Virus record (IMG/VR): IMGVR_UViG_642979322_000022
Direction: 5' to 3' (one strand)
DNA length: 64,000 nucleotides
Source: a virus
Taxonomy: Duplodnaviria; Heunggongvirae; Uroviricota; Caudoviricetes
Shown here: in pieces, positions 27,941 through 50,484 of the stretch
How the letters are laid out: each line of letters opens with the position of its first letter
How positions within the stretch are numbered: position 1 is the first letter of the stretch
Program-made: the position numbers and the translations under genes
Notes under the pieces: model-generated
The model's database searches: none
What the model saw: the letters and a program-made list of their open reading frames with translations, nothing else
Told to the model about the DNA's origin: nothing

Positions 27941-27946
27941 GCCCAT

Positions 27947-27971
27947 AAAAAAAGCCCCTCCGGAGAGGGGC
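27947..27971 (-). terminator. rho-independent terminator (minus strand), back-to-back with the plus-strand one
   Basis: Minus-strand GCCCCTC-TCCG-GAGGGGC followed by TTTTTTT. Confidence 0.6.
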
Positions 27972-28220
27972 TTCGCTACGTGTCTGTTAACCATATGCAT
28001 GGTGCCGGGTGCCTCCCGGTGAGTTCAGTATCAGCACCTGAACCCGCACAGAAAGGATAGAGTAGAAACACCTGCGCTGATATGCCCCTCCGCTCAGGGG
28101 GATTCACCATGCCAGTTTCTTTTAACAAACTCCCCGCAAACCAGACAACTGTCAACCGTCTGAATTGTGAGACATTTAAAATTTTCGGGGCGTACCTGAT
28201 ACCCGGTTAATTCTGCAATA

Positions 28221-32648: not shown

Positions 32649-32899
32649 CTCCCCTTATGGGGGCCATCCCTCTTATCCCTGCGCGCTACTTAAGAGCCTC
32701 GATTCTAGCCGTGAAGACATGCCAATCAACAGCAATAAACCACCTGAATAACAGAATCAGCCAGCCACATCGGTACAACCAGATGCATCACGCTCACCGA
32801 AAATAAACAACAAAAAACCGCCGAAGCGAGTTAAGTGGGGTGCGTTGAGGATGCCTGACACATCAGAGGTGGCGAGGGATTTCTCCCCCGCCAGGTCTC

Positions 32900-33055
32900 T
32901 TACTCCTCAGGTTCGTAAGCTGTGAAGACAGCGACCTCCGTCTGGCCGGTTCGGATTCGTACCTCGCAGAGGTCTTTCCTCGTTACCAGTGCCGTCACTA
33001 TGACGGTTAAACAGATGACGATCAGGGCGATTAGCATCGCCTTTTGCTGCTTCAT
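32900..33055 (-). CDS. hok: Hok/Gef family type I toxin
   Basis: 51 aa MKQQKAMLIALIVICLTVIVTALVTRKDLCEVRIRTGQTEVAVFTAYEPEE; the track's 70-aa overlapping frame is Mok-like; the antisense Sok region would lie ~33060-33250 on the plus strand (not resolved). Confidence 0.85.
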   Translation of the reverse strand: MKQQKAMLIALIVICLTVIVTALVTRKDLCEVRIRTGQTEVAVFTAYEPEE

Positions 33056-33305
33056 AGCCTGCTTCTCCTTGCCTTTCGGCACGTAAGAGGCTAACCTACG
33101 TGTGTAGAGCATAGATATGGCCTCAGATTAATGTTAAGCGTCTTGCCGGACGCGTAATGTTAACTGGGGCTTTTCTCTATCTGCCGTTGGTGTTCATGCC
33201 CGAGGCAGATAGCCTCAAGCACCCGCAGCAATTCTACTTAACTCTCGCTTTACCGCAAACCGTTTTTACCCGATATGGGAATTCCCATATCGTAATGAAT
33301 TCAGT

Positions 33306-37894: not shown

Positions 37895-38320
37895 TTAGTG
37901 CATCACCACAGCATTCCCTGCCGGGCCGCCGCGATTCATCTGGTCATACAAAACAACCGCTGACGCAACAAAATCATCGACATCCTTCACCAGCCGATCC
38001 CTCCGTTCGACGATCTCACGGTAATATTCAGAACTGTGGCTGCGCATACGGGCCACCAGCAAAGGCGGCATCGCCTTTTCGATCGCCGGTAACAGAGCCT
38101 GCATTTTTTCAACAGCATCAGGGGTGTCTTTCTCTACCCAGCGGAAAATTTTCTGGGTATTGCGAGCCAGGGCTTCCGGATGGCTGTCGTCATACAGTTC
38201 TGGGAACGTCATACCCAACTCAAAATAAGCCTGGGTTATTCCAGCTGCTGGAACTTTTTCGCCATCAGGACGCGCCCAGGCATTCATCGCCATGCGGATG
38301 TGTTCATGCTTGATTTTCAT
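37895..38320 (-). CDS. YdaT-like regulatory protein (CII analogue position)
   Basis: 141 aa directly downstream of the cro-like gene, as ydaT in Rac-type prophages. Confidence 0.5.
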   Translation of the reverse strand: MKIKHEHIRMAMNAWARPDGEKVPAAGITQAYFELGMTFPELYDDSHPEALARNTQKIFRWVEKDTPDAVEKMQALLPAIEKAMPPLLVARMRSHSSEYYREIVERRDRLVKDVDDFVASAVVLYDQMNRGGPAGNAVVMH

Positions 38321-38579
38321 GAATCAACTCCGGTGTATTTTGTGTGTTAGCCTTATCTCCAGCAGGCAACCCGTCGGTTGGATTCGGATATAAATCTGGT
38401 CGCAATTCATGAGGAGTCACCCCAGTTGCAATATAAATTTGACGAACCCGCTCCCCTGTCGGCACTCGACCATTGTATTCATTTGCCCATTTGTGTATTT
38501 GAGACGGCCAAGCCCCTATTGCACGCCCTAGCGGACGAATACCACCAGCAATCTTTATTGCCTTGTCCAATGCTGTCAT
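38304..38579 (-). CDS. Cro-like repressor (DicC/YdaS family)
   Basis: 91 aa; divergent from the repressor gene across an operator-containing gap. Confidence 0.65.
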   Translation of the reverse strand: MTALDKAIKIAGGIRPLGRAIGAWPSQIHKWANEYNGRVPTGERVRQIYIATGVTPHELRPDLYPNPTDGLPAGDKANTQNTPELIHENQA

Positions 38580-38608
38580 ACAACCTCCAATTCAATCAGC
38601 CACAACAT

Positions 38609-38666
38609 TGTTCACTTAAAGAGAACATAAGTCAACACTACGAGGAATTGTTAGTGTTCACTGAAC
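38609..38666. promoter_or_regulatory. operator/promoter region between divergent repressor and cro-like genes
   Basis: Dyad TGTTCACTTAAAGAGAACA (38609-38627) and GTTCACTGAAC (38656-38666) sharing half-site TGTTCAC. Confidence 0.5.
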
Positions 38667-38681
38667 GGTTATAATTGCTAA

Positions 38682-39071
38682 ATGGACATGAGAAAAAAGC
38701 AATACGACACCCCGCTGGCAGAAAGGTTAGATACGATCTCGCAACAGCATCATTTAAGCGGTTCAGATTTAGCGCGCATCGCTGGTGTAGGACGCTCATC
38801 AGTCAACGCCTGGAAAAAAAGAGGGACAATCAGTAAAGATTCCGCAGCCAAAATTGCAGAAGCGACAAATGTTTCCCTTTCCTGGCTACTGACAGGAAAA
38901 GAAGATACAAACAGAGAGGCGCTTGATGATGATGAGAAAGCCCTGCTTGATGTTTACAGAAACCTGCCACCTGTAGAGCGTAGAAATATGCTGGCAGCTT
39001 TTCAAATGCGCCTTCAAAAACTGACCGAATTTTACTCAGAATACGTTGACCCAATAACGCGACAAAAATAA
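38682..39071 (+). CDS. prophage repressor (DicA/CI-like, XRE-family HTH)
   Basis: 129 aa with HTH LSGSDLARIAGVGRSSVNAWKKRG. Confidence 0.75.
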   Translation: MDMRKKQYDTPLAERLDTISQQHHLSGSDLARIAGVGRSSVNAWKKRGTISKDSAAKIAEATNVSLSWLLTGKEDTNREALDDDEKALLDVYRNLPPVERRNMLAAFQMRLQKLTEFYSEYVDPITRQK

Positions 39072-39144
39072 TTCTTTATTTTACAAAACAATACCGCCGG
39101 AAGGCGGTTTTTTTTGCCTCTTGCGCATTCACAATGTTGACATA

Positions 39145-39163
39145 TGTTCATCTTAAGAGAACA
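39145..39163. promoter_or_regulatory. third operator-like dyad upstream of the dicB-type operon
   Basis: TGTTCATCTTAAGAGAACA, same pattern as the 38609 site. Confidence 0.4.
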
Positions 39164-39239
39164 ATATATCCCATCAAAGCACAACGGTGCGACAGGTCTT
39201 AGTTCCGCCCCCCCGGCGTTAAGGGCAAATGAGGTCAAC

Positions 39240-39392
39240 ATGGATACGCTCAATCTTGGCAACAACGAATCTCTGGTATACGGAGTATTCCCCAACCTGG
39301 ACGGCACGTTTACCGCGATGACGTATACCAGAAGCAAAACGTTTAAAACTGAAGCTGGCGCGCGTCGCTGGTTAGCCAGAAACACTGACTGA
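39240..39392 (+). CDS. ydfA: YdfA-like small protein
   Basis: About 50 aa from ATG MDTLNLGNNESLVYGVFPNLDGTFTAMTYTRSKTFKTEAGARRWLARNTD; track ORF has an N-terminal extension. Confidence 0.6.
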   Translation: MDTLNLGNNESLVYGVFPNLDGTFTAMTYTRSKTFKTEAGARRWLARNTD

Positions 39393-39709
39393 TGAGGTTG
39401 ACGATGGAATTTAAAGATTTACCAATGCAATTCCAGGAAATGGCAGCGAATATAGTTCGTTCCCAACTGGCGACTCTTGACCTGAGTACCGTAGAAAAAG
39501 AAACCATCGACAATATATCCCATAATGTGCGTAATTCCTTTATTAAGCTGTACGAAGAGAATCTGAGTTCTGAAAACAAAGATGATTCACCTAAATTCAC
39601 CCCACACCCAGGTGGAGTGAGTGAGATTTATCATGAAACAATGGTTAAAGCACTACGTATGCAAATAGCCGAACTTGAACATAAATTAAATTTAGTTAGT
39701 AAGTGCTAA
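39392..39709 (+). CDS. hypothetical protein of the dicB-type operon
   Basis: 105-aa track ORF. Confidence 0.4.
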   Translation: MRLTMEFKDLPMQFQEMAANIVRSQLATLDLSTVEKETIDNISHNVRNSFIKLYEENLSSENKDDSPKFTPHPGGVSEIYHETMVKALRMQIAELEHKLNLVSKC

Positions 39710-40073
39710 AATCAGCACAAGGCAAAAGGGTTGCACTTTCATCATAAGGGCAAACAAAAATGTGAGCATTAGCACCAACTGAATTAGCAATAGAAAAGGT
39801 TTGTTCAAGTATTTGATTCGCATTAAGCGTTGACTGAATAACGTATGCCCCTGGCAATAATTTATATTCAATGTCACCTTCATTAATCATCCTGGAGTAT
39901 TTAAAATTTGGCATCAGAGTCTCGAACTTTTTCTCCTGTTCCATTGTTGCTTCAAATAACTGCACATGGACATAATATCGATTGATTGATTTAGAGTGCA
40001 TTTTATCCTCCATTAAGGGCTGGGTTAAAAATGGAGACCAACACGCTGTCACGTGTGGTCGTGCGCCGGACAC
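39696..40073 (-). CDS. hypothetical protein antisense to the early-left operon, in an AT-rich island
   Basis: 125-aa track ORF with GTG start (about 100 aa from internal ATG MHSKSINRY...); local GC drop. Confidence 0.25.
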   Translation of the reverse strand: MSGARPHVTACWSPFLTQPLMEDKMHSKSINRYYVHVQLFEATMEQEKKFETLMPNFKYSRMINEGDIEYKLLPGAYVIQSTLNANQILEQTFSIANSVGANAHIFVCPYDESATLLPCADFSTY

Positions 40074-40337
40074 GGATAAGAATCCGGTACTGACAGTTTA
40101 CTGAAAGGCTCTTTCCCTGAAAAGTCAGGGCATAACACGAAAGCGCACGGCGAAATTGGTCTCTCTGTACGGTGTCGTTAAATTTAGTTCGACCGTGCGC
40201 TTCCGGTTGTGGCAATCCGCGAAATGGCGCGGCGGTAAGTGTGGCGGGGTTATTCTGTTCCCCCTTGAGGACGCCGGGTTGTCAGGTTGACCATACGCTT
40301 AAGTGACAACCCCACTGCAACGCCCTCTGTTATCAGT

Positions 40338-40390
40338 TTTCTGGTGACGTTTGGCGGTATCAGTTTTACTCCGTGGCTGCTCTGCCGCCC
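40338..40390 (+). ncRNA. dicF: DicF small RNA
   Basis: TTTCTGGTGACGTTTGGCGGTATCAGTTTTACTCCGTGGCTGCTCTGCCGCCC matches recalled 53-nt DicF with one mismatch; T-run follows; upstream of dicB. Confidence 0.8.
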
Positions 40391-40564
40391 TTTTTAAAGT
40401 GAATTTTGTGATGCGGTGAATGCGGCTCAGCGCACGCGGAACAGTTAAAACCAAAAACAGTGTTATGGGTGGATTCTCTGTATCCGGCGTTAATTGTTAA
40501 CTGGTTAACGTCACCTGGAGGCACCAGGCACCGCATCACAAAATTCATTGTTGAGGACGCGATA

Positions 40565-40753
40565 ATGGAAACGTCACTACCAAACGTTAATACGTCTGAA
40601 GGGTGTTTTAATATTGGTATTCTGCTCAGTAACCGGGAGTTTACTGAAGACGCCATCAGGATGAGAAAATATGAGCCTTATCTTCTCAATGATAATTCCA
40701 TACTCTCCAGAATTGCCCTTCTTGAACTTGGCATTTTCGGAGGGCAGCAGTGA
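40565..40753 (+). CDS. dicB: DicB-like cell division inhibitor
   Basis: 62 aa from internal ATG METSLPNVNTSEGCFNIGILLSNREFTEDAI... Confidence 0.8.
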   Translation: METSLPNVNTSEGCFNIGILLSNREFTEDAIRMRKYEPYLLNDNSILSRIALLELGIFGGQQ

Positions 40754-40938
40754 GTTCAGCGTTTGCACTGATGATGACGGTTTTTCTTATAACAGGTGAG
40801 CCACAGAATGTGATTACCGGAATTTATGCCAGTAAAGAATCCTGCCATCAGGCAAGAGACGAGCAAAAAATTTCCGGTGAATGTCTCCCGTTAAACAAAG
40901 TATCGCTGTACCTGAATAACGAAATACCGGCTGGATAA
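40750..40938 (+). CDS. ydfD: YdfD-like small protein
   Basis: 62 aa, hydrophobic N-terminus, ends NNEIPAG. Confidence 0.6.
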   Translation: MSSAFALMMTVFLITGEPQNVITGIYASKESCHQARDEQKISGECLPLNKVSLYLNNEIPAG

Positions 40939-41030
40939 CCCGCCAGCCGTATTAACGCCATACCCGTTGATTAAGCATGCCAGCAATAGCAGGGATTCGT
41001 ACAACCTTAAAATAGTTATGAGGTTTATCA

Positions 41031-43475
41031 ATGAGCACTGATAAAGAAGAAATTGCACTGTATTACGAAGCCAAAAATGACAAAGTCAGAAAACGCCTTG
41101 GGATTAAAGGCGGTTTTTACTGGCGCACAGCAAAAAAATTATCGGTTGCAATATCACGGGGTGTTGTCGCAATGGACGATGCTGGATTTGACGAAGAGGA
41201 TTTCAAAAAACCTGTTCGCGTGAATTTGCCCATTGTTAATGACCTGCCGCCTGAAGGTGTGTTCGATACTGAATTCTGCAACCGCTATGAAAAAGGCGGA
41301 GAAGATGGCATCACAATGATATTTATAGCGCCTTCCCCCTCAGTTCAGGACAAACCAGCCAGCACTGACAATACCAACGTCAATGGCGAAGACATGGCTG
41401 AGATTGAGGATAATATGCTCCTGCCGATTTCCGGTCAGGAACTGCCCATTCGCTGGCTTGCGCAACATGGCAGCGAAAAACCGGTAACGCACGTTTCACG
41501 GGAAGAACTTCAGGCATTACATATCGCACGAGCTGAAGAACTGCCTGCTGTTACTGCCCTGGCTATTTCCCACAACACAAAGCTGCTCGACCCGCTGGAG
41601 ATTCGCGACCTTCACAAACTGGTACGCGACACAGACAAAGTTTTCCCTAATCCCGTTAATTCCAGTCTGGGGTTAATGACTGCTTTTTTCGAAGCATACC
41701 TGGACGCTGACTATACCGATCGAGGTCTGCTGACAAAAGAGTGGATGAAAGGAAATCGTGTTTTACGCATCAGCCGCACGCCATCCGGCGCTAATGCTGG
41801 CGGAGGAATTCTTACCGATCGCGGTGAAGGTTTTGTCCACGATGATGCGTCAGTGGAACGTGACGTTGCCGCTGGCGTTCTGGCCCGTTCAATGGACATC
41901 GATATTTACAATCCACATCCGGCACACGCCAAACGCATTGAAGAAATCGTTTCAGATAATAAGCCGCCCTTTTCTGTTTTTCGTGACAAATTCATCGCCA
42001 TGCCTGGTCACCTGGATTATTCCCGCGCGATAGTGGTTGCGTCCGTGAAAGAAGCACCAATTGGTATCGAGGCTACTCCCCACCGTGTTACCGAATATCT
42101 GAACAAAGTACTGACCGAAACCGACCATGCCAACCCTGATCCAGAAATCGTGGATATTGCCTGCGGTCGCTCCTCTGCTCCAATGCCGCAGCGTGTAACA
42201 AAAGAAGGAAAACAGGATGATGAAGAAAAACCGCAGCCATCTGGCGCAATGGCAGATGAACAGGCAACGACTGAAGCAGTGGAACCGGATACAACTGAAC
42301 ATAATCAGGACACGCAGTCGATGGATGCTCAGCCACAGATAAATTCTGTTGATGCGAAATATCAGAAACTGCGGGCAGAACTCCATGAAGCCCGGAAAAA
42401 CATTCCGCCCCAAAATCCTGTCGATGCAGACAAATTACTGGCTGCCTCTCGCGGAGAATTTGTTGAAGGGATTAGCGACCCGAATGATCCGAAATGGATT
42501 AAGGGGATCCAGACCCGCGATTCTGTGTACCAGAATCAGCCAGAAACGGAACAGAACGACCAGAAAGCGGAACAGAACAGCCCAAATACGCAACAAAACG
42601 AGCCAGAAACGAAACAACCTGAACCAGTAGTGCAACAGGAACCGGAAAAGATCTGCACCGCCTGCGGTCAGAGGAGTGGCGGCAACTGCCCTGATTGTGG
42701 CGCGGTGATGGGCGACGCAACATACCAGGAAACATTCGATGACAAGAACCTGGTTGAAGTTCAGGAAGACGATTCGGAGAAAATGGAAGGCGCTGAACAT
42801 CCACACAAGGAGAATGCTGGCAGCGCTCAGGACCACGCCAGCGATAGTGAAACTGGCGAGACGGCAGATCCCTTAATTACGGTGAACGGTCATCGCATTA
42901 TCACATCCACCAGCAGGACGTGTGACCATCTAATGATCGACCTTGAAACCATGGGAAAAAATCCTGATGCCCCGATTATCTCAATAGGTGCAATATTTTT
43001 CGATCCGCAAACCGGAGATATGGGACCGGAATTTAGTAAGACTATCGATCTGGAAACTGCTGGCGGAGTCATTGATCGGGACACCATTAAATGGTGGCTT
43101 AAGCAATCACGCGAAGCGCAATCTGCCATTATGACCGATGAAATCCCGTTAGATGATGCACTGTTACAATTGCGGGAATTTATCGACGAAAACTCCGGTG
43201 AATTTTTTGTTCAGGTCTGGGGAAATGGAGCCAACTTCGACAACACGATTTTGCGCCGTTCATACGAACGGCAGGGGATCCCCTGCCCGTGGCGTTACTA
43301 CAACGATCGCGATGTACGCACAATCGTTGAGCTGGGGAAAGCCATAGACTTCGATGCCAGAACTGCTATCCCATTCGAAGGTGAGCGCCACAATGCGCTG
43401 GATGACGCTCGTTACCAGGCAAAATACGTTTCAGCTATCTGGCAAAAACTGATCCCGAATCAGGCTGATTTTTAA
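41031..43475 (+). CDS. large phage exonuclease with C-terminal DnaQ-like (DEDDh) 3'-5' exonuclease domain
   Basis: 814 aa; Exo motifs [29 protein letters not shown]; zinc-ribbon CTACGQ...CPDCG; Q/E/N/P-rich low-complexity linker. Confidence 0.75.
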
Positions 43476-44896: not shown

Positions 44897-44945
44897 TGAC
44901 CAGTTTTGCAGAGGGGTTTTGCAGAGGTTTTGCAGAGAAAATTAA

Positions 44946-45072
44946 AAACGATATCCTGCGGAGAACATAAACACCCACGGATCCAGTCGTACCGAGTCTT
45001 TCACGGTAGTAACACCAGATTTATACTTAGCCGTGGTATCGATATCCATGTACCACACTGGTAGATTTTACA
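44946..45072 (-). pseudogene. ompW: 3'-terminal fragment resembling ompW (about 40 codons); probable att-site remnant
   Basis: Hand translation ...VWYMDIDTTAKYKSGVTTVKDSVRLDPWVFMFSAGYRF* matches the recalled OmpW C-terminus; in-frame stop 7 codons upstream of the homology. Confidence 0.5.
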
Positions 45073-46195
45073 AAACTCAATAACATATTATATTTAAAGG
45101 AAAAATACAGAATTTACGATGCTTTTTTATACAGATCTCTCGTGTTTTTAACTGATTGATTTTGTTGAACTCTTTTTTTGTTTTGCAGGAGTTACTCCTC
45201 TTACCTTATTGTCCACTCGATGACCAACACATTCACAACCCAAACCAGAATATCCTATCTATGAAGCATGTATCCGCACGCAGATTAATTATGGTTTACA
45301 TTGTTCTACCACAATAGTCGCATCCTAAATGGGTGCGGTTGAGGATCACCATCCTTGAAGAGGATGCCCGCCACTTTAACTGCATGACAGGGCTATTTAA
45401 ACAATCACTAAAAATCGCCCAAGAGCATTCTGTTTCTATAATGTATTCCAAGAGATTAAAAAATAATATCATACGTTATTCGGCAGAGTTCGTATGTACT
45501 ACGGCGTCCCAACCATGTCCCAAAACAAAAATTTCTGCCCTATACACGTTCCAAAAAATTCAACAGCAAAGAGAGTCTGCTGACGAGTTGTTGATTCACT
45601 GATTAATACGTAAAATTGATAACTGCTGGAAATCATACAATACTCGTACTTTCGAAAGTTCGCTAACCAGGTGCTACACGCGAGGTGTTGCAGTTTTCTT
45701 TACGATTTATCATTCAATCCTAATCCATGCATGACATGTGGTGCCTGTGGGGTGATCCTACCTACGTAATGTGGACACAGCCCTAATCAAGGTTCTGTTT
45801 TTCAAAACAGTTCCGTGCTGAGACAGCCACAAGTACTGTGTCGGCACCACCGATTGTAATCACACTAGATCTAATTAAACACAGCCGTCTGCATTATTTC
45901 CCGACTCATAAAATATTAGCCGTAAATGCATTCGACTTTTAGTGAGTGGAAGAAACTTTCCGCCCTAGCATTATCGTAACAGCGCCCCTTTGCACTCATC
46001 CTGTCATGCAGGTATGCCGCTTCAGAAGCGCCTGATAATGCGTTGAAATCAGGACGGTGGCTACTTGCTATTCAGTTCACGATACATCCCTTAAGGACCA
46101 GCGAATAGCAATGAGTCACTTTATTATCAAGTTTGATGACCGCTTTGATGCTAACTTTTAATAAGAGTCTCTTCACACAAAATCGTGTACCGAGT

Positions 46196-46846
46196 CTACA
46201 CTGAATAACAATCACTCCTCACCGTAAAGTGACCGATACTGCAATCAAACTCACACTGCTCTCTGGCCACAAGCATTGATAATGTTATTGGCTCTCTGCT
46301 TAGTGGGTGATGCATCCCATCATTAATTATACGAGAAAGAGCCATTTCATCATATAAACTACATACTCTGGAACCTTCAGCATTTCTTAAAAAAACACCT
46401 CGTTGAGGAATTGCCAGCGTAATCGGGCACTGTAATGCTTCATCTATGTAAGACATTTCTTCAATATTAACTAAAAATGAACATGAATGTAATCGCCGCT
46501 GTAACAATTCAATTCTGTTATCATTACTATGCATAAATTCAGAAATAACCTGCCCCATATATGTACTGAATACATCAAGAAATGAATTGCCTCCATTCAA
46601 TTGATTTTCAACAGAATCAGCCAATCTAATGATATCGGCTAGTTCTGTATGGCTTAAACCCGAATATAGTTCCCCTTGAACAGGATCTACAATAAAAGCG
46701 TCCATAGCACTCTGATAGCGAACAGAAAACGATCATTCTCCTATTGTGAGTCTTTCCATTTGATGATCTCTGGTCGCACGTTGTAAAACTTCAACATCTT
46801 GTGTTGACAAGTAATTTCCAGAAGACAAATTAAATGAAAATGGCAT
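46196..46846 (-). pseudogene. nleG: nleG-family effector (U-box E3 ligase) with in-frame premature stop
   Basis: ATG near 46846 reads MPFSFNLSSGNYLSTQDVEVLQRATRDHQMERLTIGE then TGA; same frame continues ...MDAF... to the U-box (CPITLAIPQRGVF...HPLSREPI). Confidence 0.7.
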
Positions 46847-47039
46847 AATTTTATCCCTAAAGCATATATCTTACTTTTCGATAATTAACAAAAAGCCATC
46901 CTCCACAGCAATACTCCATCAGAATAATTGTAGGATTATTTTAATCTAATTTATAAGCATAAAATATATACTCACTAAATAGCTGCGCAGAATAGTAGAT
47001 CATTTAGAGGGAACTCAACCCGATTGTGCGATCTGATCA

Positions 47040-48110
47040 ATCGCCAAATCAATACAAATCACCAACCGGACTGAGCAATGTCGATCATACCACCAATTTC
47101 CCGTGACGAACGACGCCTAATACAGAAAGCCATCCATAAAAGGCTGACAGCCATGCTGATGCTGCACCGGGGCGACCGTGTCAGCGACGTTGCCCGCACA
47201 CTATGCTGCGCCCGTTCCTCTGTTGGGCGCTGGATTAACTAGTTCACACAGTCGGGTGTTGAGGGACTGAAATCATTACCTGCCGAGCGAGCCCGCCGCT
47301 GGCCGTTTGCGCATATCTACACACTATTACGTGAACAGGTAAAATATTCACTCGCGACTTTGGCTACAATTATTCACGCTGGAGTACAGAACTGCTGACA
47401 ATAAAAATCAATGAGATAACCGGCTGCCTGTTACATGCTGGAACCATTCGCCGCTGGTTGTCGTCTGTGGGGCTTGTGTGGCGAAGGGCTGCGCCAACTC
47501 TACGTATCCGTGCCCCGCCTAAAGATAAAAAGATGGCAACAATCCATAACGCACTGGACGAATGCAGCACAGAGCATCCGGTCTTTTATGAAGATGAAGT
47601 ATTTATCCATCTTAATCCCAAAATCGGTGCGGACTGGAAACTGCTCGGGAAGCAAAAACGAGGGGTCACGCCGGAACAAAATGAAAAATATTCTCTGGAC
47701 GTAGCGCTGCACAGCGGGACAGGTTAAGTCAGCTGTGTGGGCGCCAACAGCAAAAGTTCGGCGCTGTTCATCAGACTGCTGAAGCGGCTTAAAGCTACAT
47801 ACTGTCGGACGAAAACCATCACGCTGCTCGAGGACAACTACATTATCCACAAAGGCCGGGAAACCCAGCGCTGGCTGAAGGATAAACCGAAGTGCAGAGT
47901 CATTTATCAGCCGGTTTAATCTCCATGGGTGAATCATTTTGAATAGCTATGGCAGATACTTCACGCCACAATAACGCGTAATCATCAGTGCCGCTCAATG
48001 TGGCAACTATTGAAAAAGTTCGCCATTTTATGGAATCCGTCAGTCCATTCCCCGAAGGCAAACATGGGCTGGCAAAAATGTGCGATATTAGGCGCAGCTA
48101 TTTAGTTATT
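47040..48110 (+). mobile_element. degenerate IS630-family element (transposase broken by stops and frameshifts)
   Basis: Fragments MSIIPPISRDERRLIQKAIHKRL...RSSVGRWIN*, ...KIGADWKLLGKQKRGVTPEQNEKY..., ...RVIYQPV* in different frames; element ends approximate. Confidence 0.7.
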
Positions 48111-48352
48111 CCGTCATTTCTCCCGCCCGTGTAAACACTACTGAATCTTGTCGTTGTGACAAAGCTATAAATAGTCAATCACAGCACGTTTCTGCGTACG
48201 ACGCGCTGCAATTTTCTTTACGATTTATAACTGTACAGGTGAACTATGAGTTATTTGGATACATACATATAGTGTAACGCCTGTTGTATATTTTACTCAT
48301 ATCTTTTTACAGGATGAAAACCAATGATACTGGCGCATAGCCTCCTCCAACC

Positions 48353-48943
48353 TTACCCCTGTATAACACGACTCATATAACCTGGGATTTCATTTCGTAG
48401 TTTTACAATATCAACACCCGGGGCGATATGTTTCTGATAAAACTTGTCTGCAAGCACGTTTGCTATGTAATCTGTTGTACTGTTTTTTACAGCTCGGCTC
48501 ATACCATCGCAAAGAGCATCCATTTTTTTGCCAAAAGAAGCATTTCCTATTATTATATGATTAATAGAACTTTGTGCCGCTTTAACATCAAGAGTTAGTT
48601 CAAACTCCTTACTTACAAGAGAAAAGACCATTTTCCTCTCTTCAGAAGAAATTTTTGCATTTTTTTGAAGGCAGCAATTATCAATCTCTTGGTTGATAAC
48701 CCTTGACGGATATACTGTCCGTTCATCACTTACCCATCCATGAATATCTTTAGTACTCTGCCTGCTTACCGTCTCCAGTATACAGCCGCTAAATTTGTTA
48801 ACATTAAAGCGGATAGAGCGCTCTCCCATTGAACACTTCACGACCTCATCATTCTTCCCACGGATGGTGCCCCGGAAAGAATTATCTTTATGATAACTGA
48901 TACCAAAAGAGCTGAAGGACACACCTGTCGCATTTACTGGCAT
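48353..48943 (-). CDS. espM: WxxxE-family type III effector, EspM-like
   Basis: 196 aa with WxxxE motif (WVSDE); length and layout as EspM/IpgB/Map family. Confidence 0.7.
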   Translation of the reverse strand: MPVNATGVSFSSFGISYHKDNSFRGTIRGKNDEVVKCSMGERSIRFNVNKFSGCILETVSRQSTKDIHGWVSDERTVYPSRVINQEIDNCCLQKNAKISSEERKMVFSLVSKEFELTLDVKAAQSSINHIIIGNASFGKKMDALCDGMSRAVKNSTTDYIANVLADKFYQKHIAPGVDIVKLRNEIPGYMSRVIQG

Positions 48944-49126
48944 AACAAATCCTTTTCATTAAAATTTGCTTACAAAAATTGTATACAATCATTTTAATTA
49001 AAAAAATACATGTGTAAATAGCATTCGTTCAAAATTTAATTTTTTGTTTGAATCCTATCACATATTTAGTATCTTGACTCCTGTCACCAATATGGTTCAA
49101 TAACATAGACTAAAGAGGGAGAAAAT

Positions 49127-49774
49127 ATGCCTGTCATATTAAACTTTTCGAGTGAAAGAGTATTGTCTGAAAGTGAACTGGAGGCTTTACGTCATGTCGG
49201 AAGAGTTAGTCAGAGTGAACAGCTTGTTGTGAGAGGCCGCACTATGAGACTTCATCATATTTCATTTATGGACAGTTTTAGCGTGGAACCGGTTTCCGGC
49301 GGACTGTTGGATCGCCTTAGTGCAAGAGGGCATCGCCTTCTCGCAGAAAATCTGGAGATACAGCTTAACAGAGGCCATACTTTTTTGCAGGCATTCCGTT
49401 TATATATGGAACAGAGCCGTGCAACCCCATGTACGCGCCAAAACGTCAGTAGTGCAATACAAAACAAAATTAACTCTCATGCATTTACTGTTAGTCATCA
49501 AGACTTTTCCTGTCATGAACAACACCTGAATTGCCCGATAACATTATGCATTCCTGAAACTGGTGTTTTTGTCAGAAATGCAAAAAACTCAGAAATATGT
49601 TCATTATATGACCACAATGCACTCACTGAACTTATCCGACGCAACGCTCCACACCCTCTCAGCCGTGAACCCTTTGTTCCGGAAATGATTGTCAGCAAAG
49701 ATGAATGCCATTTTAATCTAATAGAACAATATTTTTGCATATTAGCCACACAAAATATATGCACTAGAATTTGA
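49127..49774 (+). CDS. nleG: nleG-family effector, apparently intact
   Basis: 215 aa with C-terminal U-box signature LNCPITLCIPETGVFVRNAKNSEICSLYDHNALTELI...HPLSREPF. Confidence 0.85.
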   Translation: MPVILNFSSERVLSESELEALRHVGRVSQSEQLVVRGRTMRLHHISFMDSFSVEPVSGGLLDRLSARGHRLLAENLEIQLNRGHTFLQAFRLYMEQSRATPCTRQNVSSAIQNKINSHAFTVSHQDFSCHEQHLNCPITLCIPETGVFVRNAKNSEICSLYDHNALTELIRRNAPHPLSREPFVPEMIVSKDECHFNLIEQYFCILATQNICTRI

Positions 49775-50484
49775 CTGTATGGTTCGATTTAAATGTTGCA
49801 AAATTAATTTTACTAGTTATTGCCATCTATTTCATACTCCCTAATTCTTGATACAATCTGTCTGTCAAAATAGTAGATTAGATCGAACTTATATTACAGC
49901 TATTTAGTTTCTAAAATGGAATTTTTAACGTTTTATACTTCACATTACAATCTGTACCATAAGCCTCCTCAGCGAGGTTGCCTGAATACCCTGTCGTGCC
50001 CATTTTTCCATCGGACGCAGTTGTCTGCTCTCTCGAACTACTGGCAATAAAAATCAACCAGACAGCTTGATGTCCGTTACATGCAGGACTAATCACGATT
50101 GGTTACCGTTTACAAAACTTGCGTAACATTGGAGGAGAACGAATAATATTCTCTAGCTGGTACGCGTTCCATAGCGAAACGGGCAAGGTCCAACAGCAAG
50201 AGCTGAAACTCAGGGGGATTTATCAGTCGATTTATTCGCCATGGATGAATCACGCTGTACGGTTATGGTAGCTCTTAGCGACAAGGCATAATCATCAGTA
50301 CACCAATGTAACAACCGTTGAAAAAGACTCATTATTTTATGAACCAGCCATCCCATTTCCAGAGTGGTAAATATGATTTGTTAAAGTGTAACAGTACTCT
50401 GCGTAGCCTTTTTAGATTCATAGTTTAATGTTTCTAAATACATTAAATTGCACTATAAGAGAAAGACATAATGTGAGGATAAAA

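Follow-up and report, generated by a model that had tools for sequence, protein, structure and literature searches.

A dicBF-type module in the early-left operon of a lambdoid prophage at ompW in enterohaemorrhagic Escherichia coli

Background

The Qin prophage of Escherichia coli K-12 carries an operon, ydfABC-dicF-dicB-ydfDE, that is governed by the regulators DicA and DicC. In K-12, DicA represses the operon promoter dicBp, and either Rem or stochastic switching (bistability) derepresses the operon; RNase III and RNase E process the polycistronic RNA to DicF species of 190 and 53 nucleotides (nt), and DicB acts with MinC and blocks phages that depend on ManYZ (PMC10448788). The small RNA (sRNA) DicF uses its 3' part to pair with ftsZ and both its 5' and 3' parts to pair with other targets, and the 3' end of a 72-nt form is made by RNase III (PMC5069750). 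Here we describe positions 39240-40938 of a 64,000-nt stretch of viral DNA (IMG/VR record IMGVR_UViG_642979322_000022; "the window" denotes all 64,000 nt), a segment that begins at the start codon of a ydfA-like gene (39240) and ends at the stop codon of a ydfD-like gene (40938). We are highly confident that it represents the dicBF-type part of the early-left (pL-equivalent) operon in a lambdoid prophage inserted at ompW in enterohaemorrhagic or Shiga toxin-producing E. coli (EHEC, STEC), a confidence that covers the identity of the segment and the mechanism proposed below as a single reading. The module is a genuine and already well-described prophage module of pathogenic E. coli, controlled by a repressor and encoding the DicF sRNA and the small protein DicB.

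Both products block division of the host cell. They are textbook cases of prophage control over the host, with effects on division, metabolism, phage resistance and, in EHEC, virulence by way of pchA and the locus of enterocyte effacement (LEE). Multiple dicF/dicBF loci in the prophages of the O157:H7 strains Sakai and EDL933 were described in 2016 (PMC5069750). In EHEC, DicF activates pchA under low oxygen (PMC7873438, PMC11774850), and passages in the same two articles, citing Melson & Kendall 2019, put the number of dicF copies in EHEC at four.

DicF, its precursor and DicB

The list of open reading frames (ORFs), Pfam and the Prokaryotic Genome Annotation Pipeline (PGAP) annotation of one O157:H7 chromosome identical over 38000-42000 agree on the genes. 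The whole window was also searched with Rfam cmscan at gathering thresholds, which called three families (DicF, STnc100 and sok). The features at the core of the segment are as follows.

40129-40213, + strand: long precursor hairpin (fold; duplex of 22-23 bp, 40129-40154 with 40188-40213)
40338-40390, + strand: DicF sRNA, 53 nt, A39G allele (Rfam RF00039; 52 of 53 positions identical to K-12 DicF)
40393-40555, + strand: structured DicF-to-dicB spacer (fold; closing duplex of 21-26 bp, 40393-40418 with 40529-40555, and inner hairpins)
40565-40753, + strand: dicB, 62 amino acids (aa) (Pfam DicB, PF05358, 115.7 bits against a cut-off of 27, 7.4e-34, residues 1-62 on profile positions 1-62; PGAP "cell division inhibition protein DicB")
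40750-40938, + strand: ydfD-like gene, 62 aa, DUF1482 (Pfam 1.8e-14; 47% identical to K-12 YdfD), overlapping the dicB stop by 4 nt

An earlier note, made from the letters of the window, had placed a 53-nt DicF with one mismatch at about 40338-40390 and had named an Rfam scan as the test of that call. Rfam calls DicF (RF00039) at 40339-40390 (+) with 75.0 bits against a gathering score of 48 (E = 1e-14), over model positions 1-52 of 52 and with every base pair canonical. When the 53-nt K-12 DicF was used as a query with up to three mismatches allowed, the window gave a single match, 40338-40390 (+) with one mismatch, and none of 100 shuffled sequences was matched, so that both the coordinates and the mismatch count of the note were exact. 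A second DicF within the window was rejected, since neither Rfam at its gathering threshold nor the pattern search with up to three mismatches returned one. On the strand shared by the ydfA-like gene and dicB, the sRNA lies between the two, 174 nt ahead of dicB. Folding and a terminator scan give it a single-stranded 5' end of 15 nt followed by a terminator hairpin, GGCGGUA...UGCCGCC, and the run CUUUUU.

The mismatch, A39G, changes GUGACUG to GUGGCUG at window position 40376. It lies outside the single-stranded 5' seed and the ACUCCG anti-Shine-Dalgarno loop, both of which are unchanged relative to K-12. In the precursor, nucleotide 39 of DicF pairs with U40242, as A-U in K-12 and as G-U here; the substitutions at 40241 and 40376 were considered as a compensatory pair and rejected, as they are not pairing partners. 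In the predicted DicF:ftsZ duplex A39G is part of an internal loop, and the duplex energy is -38.5 kcal/mol with either allele. With A-U turned into G-U in the RNA's own stem, and the position unpaired in the predicted ftsZ duplex, the prediction is that A39G has no effect. The ftsZ leader itself is highly conserved: 5389 of 5425 genomes show an identity of 99% or more, and O157:H7 shows 100%. Against shuffled sRNAs the duplex energy has a z-score of about -1.5, with 22-25 of 300 shuffles as good; being about 1.5 standard deviations better than shuffles, the RNAduplex energy was dropped as independent proof of ftsZ targeting.

DicF is embedded in an untranslated stretch of about 500-540 nt that resembles the corresponding part of Qin well beyond the sRNA itself. 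Homology to K-12 Qin begins at about 40024-40060, takes in DicF and the spacer, and extends some 25 codons into dicB; beyond that point identity falls to about 60%. Over 40060-40564 the precursor is 92.1% identical to that of Qin, the differences being concentrated in 40076-40188, and from 40189 on identity is about 97%. The RNase III cut that yields the 190-nt DicF species in K-12 would map to about 40201, in the 3' arm of the hairpin at 40129-40213, if it is placed by position (the 5' end of 53-nt DicF minus 137 nt, aligned to K-12). On the other side of DicF, the spacer domain folds with -67.8 kcal/mol (z = -4.49; 0 of 200 shuffles as stable), and the 3' arm of its closing duplex extends into the Shine-Dalgarno region of dicB. 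By analogy with K-12, cleavage within this duplex would give the published 72-nt form of DicF. The substitutions in helices relative to K-12 preserve pairing: those at 40414 and 40532 turn G-U into G-C, and that at 40376 turns A-U into G-U.

The full-length Pfam match and the PGAP name agree in identifying the gene downstream of the spacer as dicB, which bears out the dicB-like inhibitor proposed in the earlier note. Its product is 58% identical to K-12 DicB, with about 35 N-terminal residues conserved and a different C-terminal half, and is 66% identical over 53 aa to the DicB of the neighbouring prophage described below. Sequence comparison places a recombination breakpoint inside dicB at about codon 25-35.

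Immunity switch and operon promoter

The operon is located downstream of a repressor/Cro switch and upstream of the genes for an exonuclease, Xis and Int. The components of the switch and of the promoter are listed here.

37895-38320, - strand: YdaT-family gene (31% identical to Rac YdaT)
38304-38579, - strand: Cro-like regulator, 91 aa, YdaS family (Pfam YdaS_toxin, 39 bits against a cut-off of 30; PGAP "transcriptional regulator")
38607-38637, - strand: PR-like promoter, TTGACT-17-AACAAT (promoter scan; the spacer holds an exact match of the operator palindrome, TGTTCACTTAAAGAGAACA, at 38609-38627)
38648-38675, + strand: putative PRM-like promoter of the repressor gene, TTGTTA-16-TATAAT (promoter scan, 10 of 12 positions)
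38688-39071, + strand: CI/DicA-like repressor, 127 aa (Pfam Phage_CI_repr 1.8e-12 and HTH_3 2.9e-8; PHROG transcriptional repressor families)
39093-39116, + strand: intrinsic terminator after the repressor gene (terminator scan; ACCGCCGGAAGGCGGT followed by T8; inverted repeat I9)
39137-39165, + strand: pL/dicBp-equivalent promoter, TTGACA-17-AACAAT (promoter scan, 10 of 12 positions; the spacer holds the palindrome TGTTCATCTTAAGAGAACA at 39145-39163)

The operator is a 19-bp palindrome, TGTTC-N9-GAACA, and its exact copies in the 64 kb are those at 38609-38627 and 39145-39163 alone. Each lies in a 31-nt promoter-operator module, and the two modules (the 38607-38637 region and 39135-39165) are inverted copies of one another, 84% complementary, of which one is directed at the Cro-like gene and the other at ydfA-DicF-dicB. 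The promoter at 39137-39165 shows repeats D1 and I1, and is separated from the repressor gene by the terminator at 39093-39116. The match of 38648-38675 to the promoter consensus suggests a PRM-like role, and this element overlaps an operator half-site, TGTTCACTGAA (38655-38665), which is a direct repeat (D4).

The repressor is distantly homologous to DicA, with 26% identity over 110 aa that include the C-terminal part (E = 4e-7), and is weakly similar to RacR of the Rac prophage (28 aa, E = 3e-4). In Pfam it matched helix-turn-helix (HTH) families alone, the S24 peptidase domain of RecA-cleavable repressors being absent. The Cro-like protein, which is divergent from the repressor and has the YdaT gene next to it, is 30% identical to Rac YdaS (E = 4e-6). 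BLASTP found no similarity between it and DicC (E = 1.1), and it gave no match to P22_Cro, the family on which DicC itself passes with 44 bits while staying below threshold on YdaS. The operator differs as well: at the equivalent positions Qin has TGTTAG-N6-CTAACA, the motif TGTTC-N9-GAACA is absent from the Qin locus, and the two prophages therefore do not share the operator specificity that a common immunity would require. Qin dicBp likewise has a palindromic operator between its -35 and -10 elements. The DicA/DicC-type switch proposed in the earlier note thus stands in its layout, with divergent repressor and Cro-like genes, operators also at the dicB-operon promoter and a short, HTH-only repressor without an S24 domain that is a distant relative of DicA; it does not stand in its Cro partner, which is of the YdaS family rather than DicC, nor in its operator. 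From its sequence the switch is best described as heteroimmune, with a Rac-like Cro side, and as analogous to dicA/dicC in its working and not in its membership.

A Qin-type Rem antirepressor was also sought and rejected: in a tblastn search of the whole window with K-12 Rem, the best match had an E value of 0.61.

Comparison with the Qin and Rac operons

Upstream of DicF the operon has three further ORFs.

39240-39392, + strand: ydfA-like gene, 50 aa, DUF1391, the first gene of the operon (Pfam 3.9e-28; 86% identical to K-12 YdfA)
39404-39709, + strand: ORF of 101 aa, 37% GC, in the slot of Qin ydfB/ydfC (phrog_6937, 1.3e-30 over the N-terminal 65 aa)
39696-40001, - strand: opposite-strand ORF of 101 aa, 36% GC (phrog_8894, 1.5e-35; PGAP hypothetical protein)

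Qin and this locus have the same elements in the same order and on the same strands, namely repressor, terminator, operator-bearing promoter, ydfA, the untranslated region with DicF, dicB, ydfD, a recE-like gene (ydfE in Qin) and int. The likeness is greatest in DicF (52 of 53 positions), in the precursor (92.1%, with both long duplexes) and in YdfA (86%). In contrast, the immunity region has been swapped (a repressor of 26% identity, YdaS and YdaT instead of the P22_Cro-family DicC, and another operator), DicB and YdfD are 58% and 47% identical, DNA homology fades from about codon 25 of dicB, and Rem, present in Qin, has no homologue in this window. Qin is also decayed, whereas the prophage described here is close to full length and has genes for tail, head and lysis as well as xis and int.

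A further difference is that ydfB and ydfC of Qin are replaced here by the two unrelated AT-rich ORFs, one of them antisense. These are convergent with an overlap of 14 nt, have 36-37% GC against 50% for the window, and belong to PHROG families without assigned function. The ORF at 39696-40001 has a GGAGG Shine-Dalgarno sequence 7 nt upstream of its ATG. The ORF at 39404-39709 was considered as ydfB, ydfC or ydaG and rejected for want of similarity, and both ORFs were rejected as known defence genes, since neither has a match in PADLOC or Pfam. The "ydfA-like genes" of the earlier note therefore come down to one, at 39240-39392; the other two ORFs are unrelated to it, and ydfB and ydfC are absent.

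The Rac prophage (racR-ydaG-ydaF-sieB-kilS-kilR) follows the same design, with a repressor, an early DUF1391 gene (placed after the small ydaG), a gene on the opposite strand in the middle, an sRNA and a small division inhibitor directed at FtsZ, and in both prophages the Cro-side genes are of the YdaS and YdaT families. The products of the two operons differ: Rac has the sRNA KilS and the inhibitor KilR, which belong to families separate from those of DicF and DicB. The ORF at 39696-40001 occupies the position of Rac sieB and is not sieB (phrog_8894, no Pfam match); by analogy of position it may be a moron or an exclusion gene.

Proposed mechanism and alternative explanations

The mechanism that we propose is drawn from experiments on other copies in K-12 and EHEC. 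In the lysogen, the anatomy of the locus suggests that the 127-aa repressor would bind TGTTC-N9-GAACA in the spacer of the promoter at 39137-39165, and the identical module in front of the Cro-like gene, keeping the operon off. The repressor has no autocleavage domain, and derepression is therefore expected to come from an antirepressor or from stochastic switching, as for DicA and Rem in Qin, and not from RecA-mediated cleavage. A single transcript would then run through the ydfA-like gene, the 101-aa ORF at 39404-39709, the untranslated stretch of about 540 nt, dicB, the ydfD-like gene, the exonuclease gene, xis and int. By analogy with K-12, and given an identity of 92-97% and the conserved duplexes, RNase III would cut the long duplexes on both sides of DicF and RNase E would make the 5' end of the 53-nt RNA, while the 3' end would arise by termination at DicF's own hairpin and U-run or by RNase III (the 72-nt form). 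DicF, with Hfq, would pair with the ribosome-binding site of ftsZ and with other mRNAs (xylR, pykA and manX in K-12, pchA in EHEC), lowering FtsZ synthesis and altering metabolic and virulence regulation as it does in those strains. Read-through of the DicF terminator would produce dicB mRNA, and DicB with MinC would block Z-ring formation; as in K-12, it may also block phages that enter via ManYZ.

Several points weigh against this account. The expression and processing of this particular copy are read from its sequence, and because EHEC has several dicF copies, published northern blots are not attributable to one locus. The window has no Rem-like antirepressor that could serve induction, and the convergent opposite-strand gene at 39696-40001, between the promoter and DicF, could hinder read-through. 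DicB is 58% identical to the K-12 protein and divergent in its C-terminal half, so that its presumed activity follows from family membership. Finally, because the duplex energy is marginal against shuffles, the proposed pairing with ftsZ rests on K-12 genetics together with sequence identity.

Two other explanations were weighed, both of which we regard as very improbable. According to one, the DicF-like sequence is an inert relic that never yields a functional sRNA, in a defective prophage whose operon is permanently silent or interrupted; the P-like replication gene annotated as frameshifted in an identical genome, the opposite-strand gene inserted between promoter and DicF, and the want of a Rem-like antirepressor in the window would all fit such decay. 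The module itself does not look decayed, however, as promoter, operator, repressor, precursor duplexes, DicF, terminator, dicB and ydfD are all intact, and DicF is identical at 52 of 53 positions to a functional K-12 RNA and occurs as this exact allele in 493 records. Moreover, K-12 Qin is far more decayed and yet makes DicF (PMC10448788), and in the neighbouring prophage, too, an ORF on the opposite strand occupies this position, so that a gene here does not preclude retention of the module.

The other explanation, to which we give slightly less credence still, is that DicF acts mainly in cis, as a terminator or attenuator and an RNase III hub that sets the level of the dicB-exo-xis-int mRNA, with the regulation of host mRNAs in trans being secondary. 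The DicF hairpin and U-run do score as an intrinsic terminator, two long duplexes flank DicF, with the downstream 3' arm reaching the dicB Shine-Dalgarno region, and conservation takes in the whole untranslated region of about 500 nt (92.1% to K-12) and not just the 53 nt, while the DicB protein is only 58% identical. Against this, compensatory mutations in K-12 have demonstrated that DicF regulates ftsZ, xylR and pykA in trans (PMC5069750), and neither the single-stranded 5' seed nor the anti-Shine-Dalgarno loop has changed in this copy. A role in cis is also compatible with one in trans, and would be an addition to the explanation that we prefer, a repressor-controlled dicBF operon producing a trans-acting DicF and DicB, and not a replacement for it.

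Distribution and known status

The region 38000-42000 of the window is 100% identical to several E. coli O157:H7 chromosomes, and because of this identity the locus is one of the O157:H7 dicBF loci already published. It shows no substantive difference from the multi-copy dicF/dicBF prophages described in EHEC O157:H7 (CP-933O/M/P; "four copies of dicF"). Multi-copy dicBF in EHEC prophages being in the literature, the finding is already known and opens no new question.

The DicF 53-mer is present in 3823 of 5426 complete E. coli genomes, at one to six copies each, with four to five matches in O157 genomes, and the exact A39G allele is found in 493 E. coli records. The cassette also occurs in 38 deposited phage or prophage records, among them "PPompW" prophages and phage Tritos, in whose record DicF is annotated. 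About 600 bp long and reaching from the DicF precursor as far as the 5' end of dicB, this cassette retains 92-97% identity, while exchange around it has affected the immunity region, the genes upstream and the 3' half of dicB. Among the records examined, the PGAP records of O157:H7 name dicB, and neither these nor those of other STEC have a DicF feature, whereas K-12 MG1655 annotates dicF. The gap in the O157 records is thus one of annotation and not of biology, and confirmation of the locus has practical value for annotation.

Prophage context

Outside the segment and its switch, the window holds these features.

27941-28141, - strand: STnc100 sRNA (RF02076; Rfam 148 bits, E = 6.9e-33)
33050-33224 and 32899-33054, - strand: hok/sok type I toxin-antitoxin pair (Rfam sok 111.7 bits; adjoining hokD named by PGAP)
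41031-43475, + strand: exonuclease, 814 aa (PGAP and Pfam: Exonuc_VIII N-terminus, Rv2179c-like 3'-5' exonuclease C-terminal domain)

The left 37 kb of the window is the remainder of the same lambdoid prophage, with genes for NleG-type DUF1076 proteins, tail, head, terminase, lysis, Q, rusA, hokD/sok and replication, among which the P-like replication gene is annotated as frameshifted in an identical genome. Qin has a hok/sok pair at the same relative position. To the right, the exonuclease gene is followed by xis, int and a fragment of ompW, which int adjoins. The gene content and order, the switch, and int next to the ompW fragment together uphold the earlier assignment of the segment to a prophage early-left region. 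In the exonuclease, an Exonuc_VIII (RecE) N-terminal region is joined to an Rv2179c-like 3'-5' exoribonuclease domain that replaces the RecE nuclease core, and the PGAP and Pfam gene calls include no recT-like gene between it and xis. The STnc100 gene is located in the late region, downstream of Q and between a DNA-methyltransferase gene and a DUF6645 gene, and occupies the slot held by tRNA genes in the tandem neighbour prophage.

The tandem neighbour and the DicF-to-dicB spacer

Beyond the window, the neighbouring prophage has an early-left operon of the same layout, complete with a dicB of its own and an ORF on the opposite strand at the same position. The earlier note had suggested that tandem prophages may carry further copies of DicF. 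None besides the one described is present in the window, but just outside it the neighbour has a divergent DicF-like variant (NZ_CP038425.1, 3159471-3159521), at the homologous position upstream of its dicB. The variant retains the 5' 20 nt and the flanking sequence but has another loop and inner stem, so that the ftsZ-pairing ACUCCG anti-Shine-Dalgarno sequence is missing. It scores 43.5 bits on the Rfam DicF model, below the gathering score of 48, and its predicted duplex with ftsZ is no better than those of shuffles. The variant has no annotation and is carried by 290 of 5426 complete E. coli genomes, most of them STEC.

The spacer between DicF and dicB resembles a second sRNA family. The region 40388-40597 (+) matches the full-length STnc100 model (RF02076) with 37.4 bits, below the gathering score of 47 (E = 1.4e-6 in a search of 601 nt), and the neighbour's copy of the spacer scores 32.3 bits. 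The spacer keeps nearly all the pairs of the STnc100 model, and shares with it the hairpin UCACC-GG-AGGCA-CC-GGCAC, with U-A in place of G-C. Unlike STnc100, it lies within an mRNA leader and is not a free-standing sRNA gene, and the 3' terminator part of the model lands on the start of dicB. The match may reflect remote homology to the STnc100/PasD family of prophage sRNAs. We consider it possible, though on balance rather unlikely, that the spacer at 40393-40555 is a diverged member of this family rather than a passive leader and, together with this, that the variant in EHEC's tandem neighbour prophage is a neofunctionalised DicF paralogue. If the spacer did belong to this family, RNase III duplexes would separate two modules of sRNA type within the dicBF precursor. 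Neither the STnc100-like spacer nor the variant paralogue was found described in the dicF/dicBF literature that we surveyed.

The two lambdoid prophages are arranged in tandem at ompW, with a fragment of ompW after the first int and intact ompW after the second. The second prophage, which carries espM1, nleG, nleF, nleH1-2 and nleA, begins at about 45000, towards the right end of the window, and its xis and int are near-identical to those of the first. The stretch between (about 44900-64000) is rich in effector genes and ridden with insertion sequences, and includes NleG-type genes together with the espM1, nleF, nleH1-2 and nleA just named.

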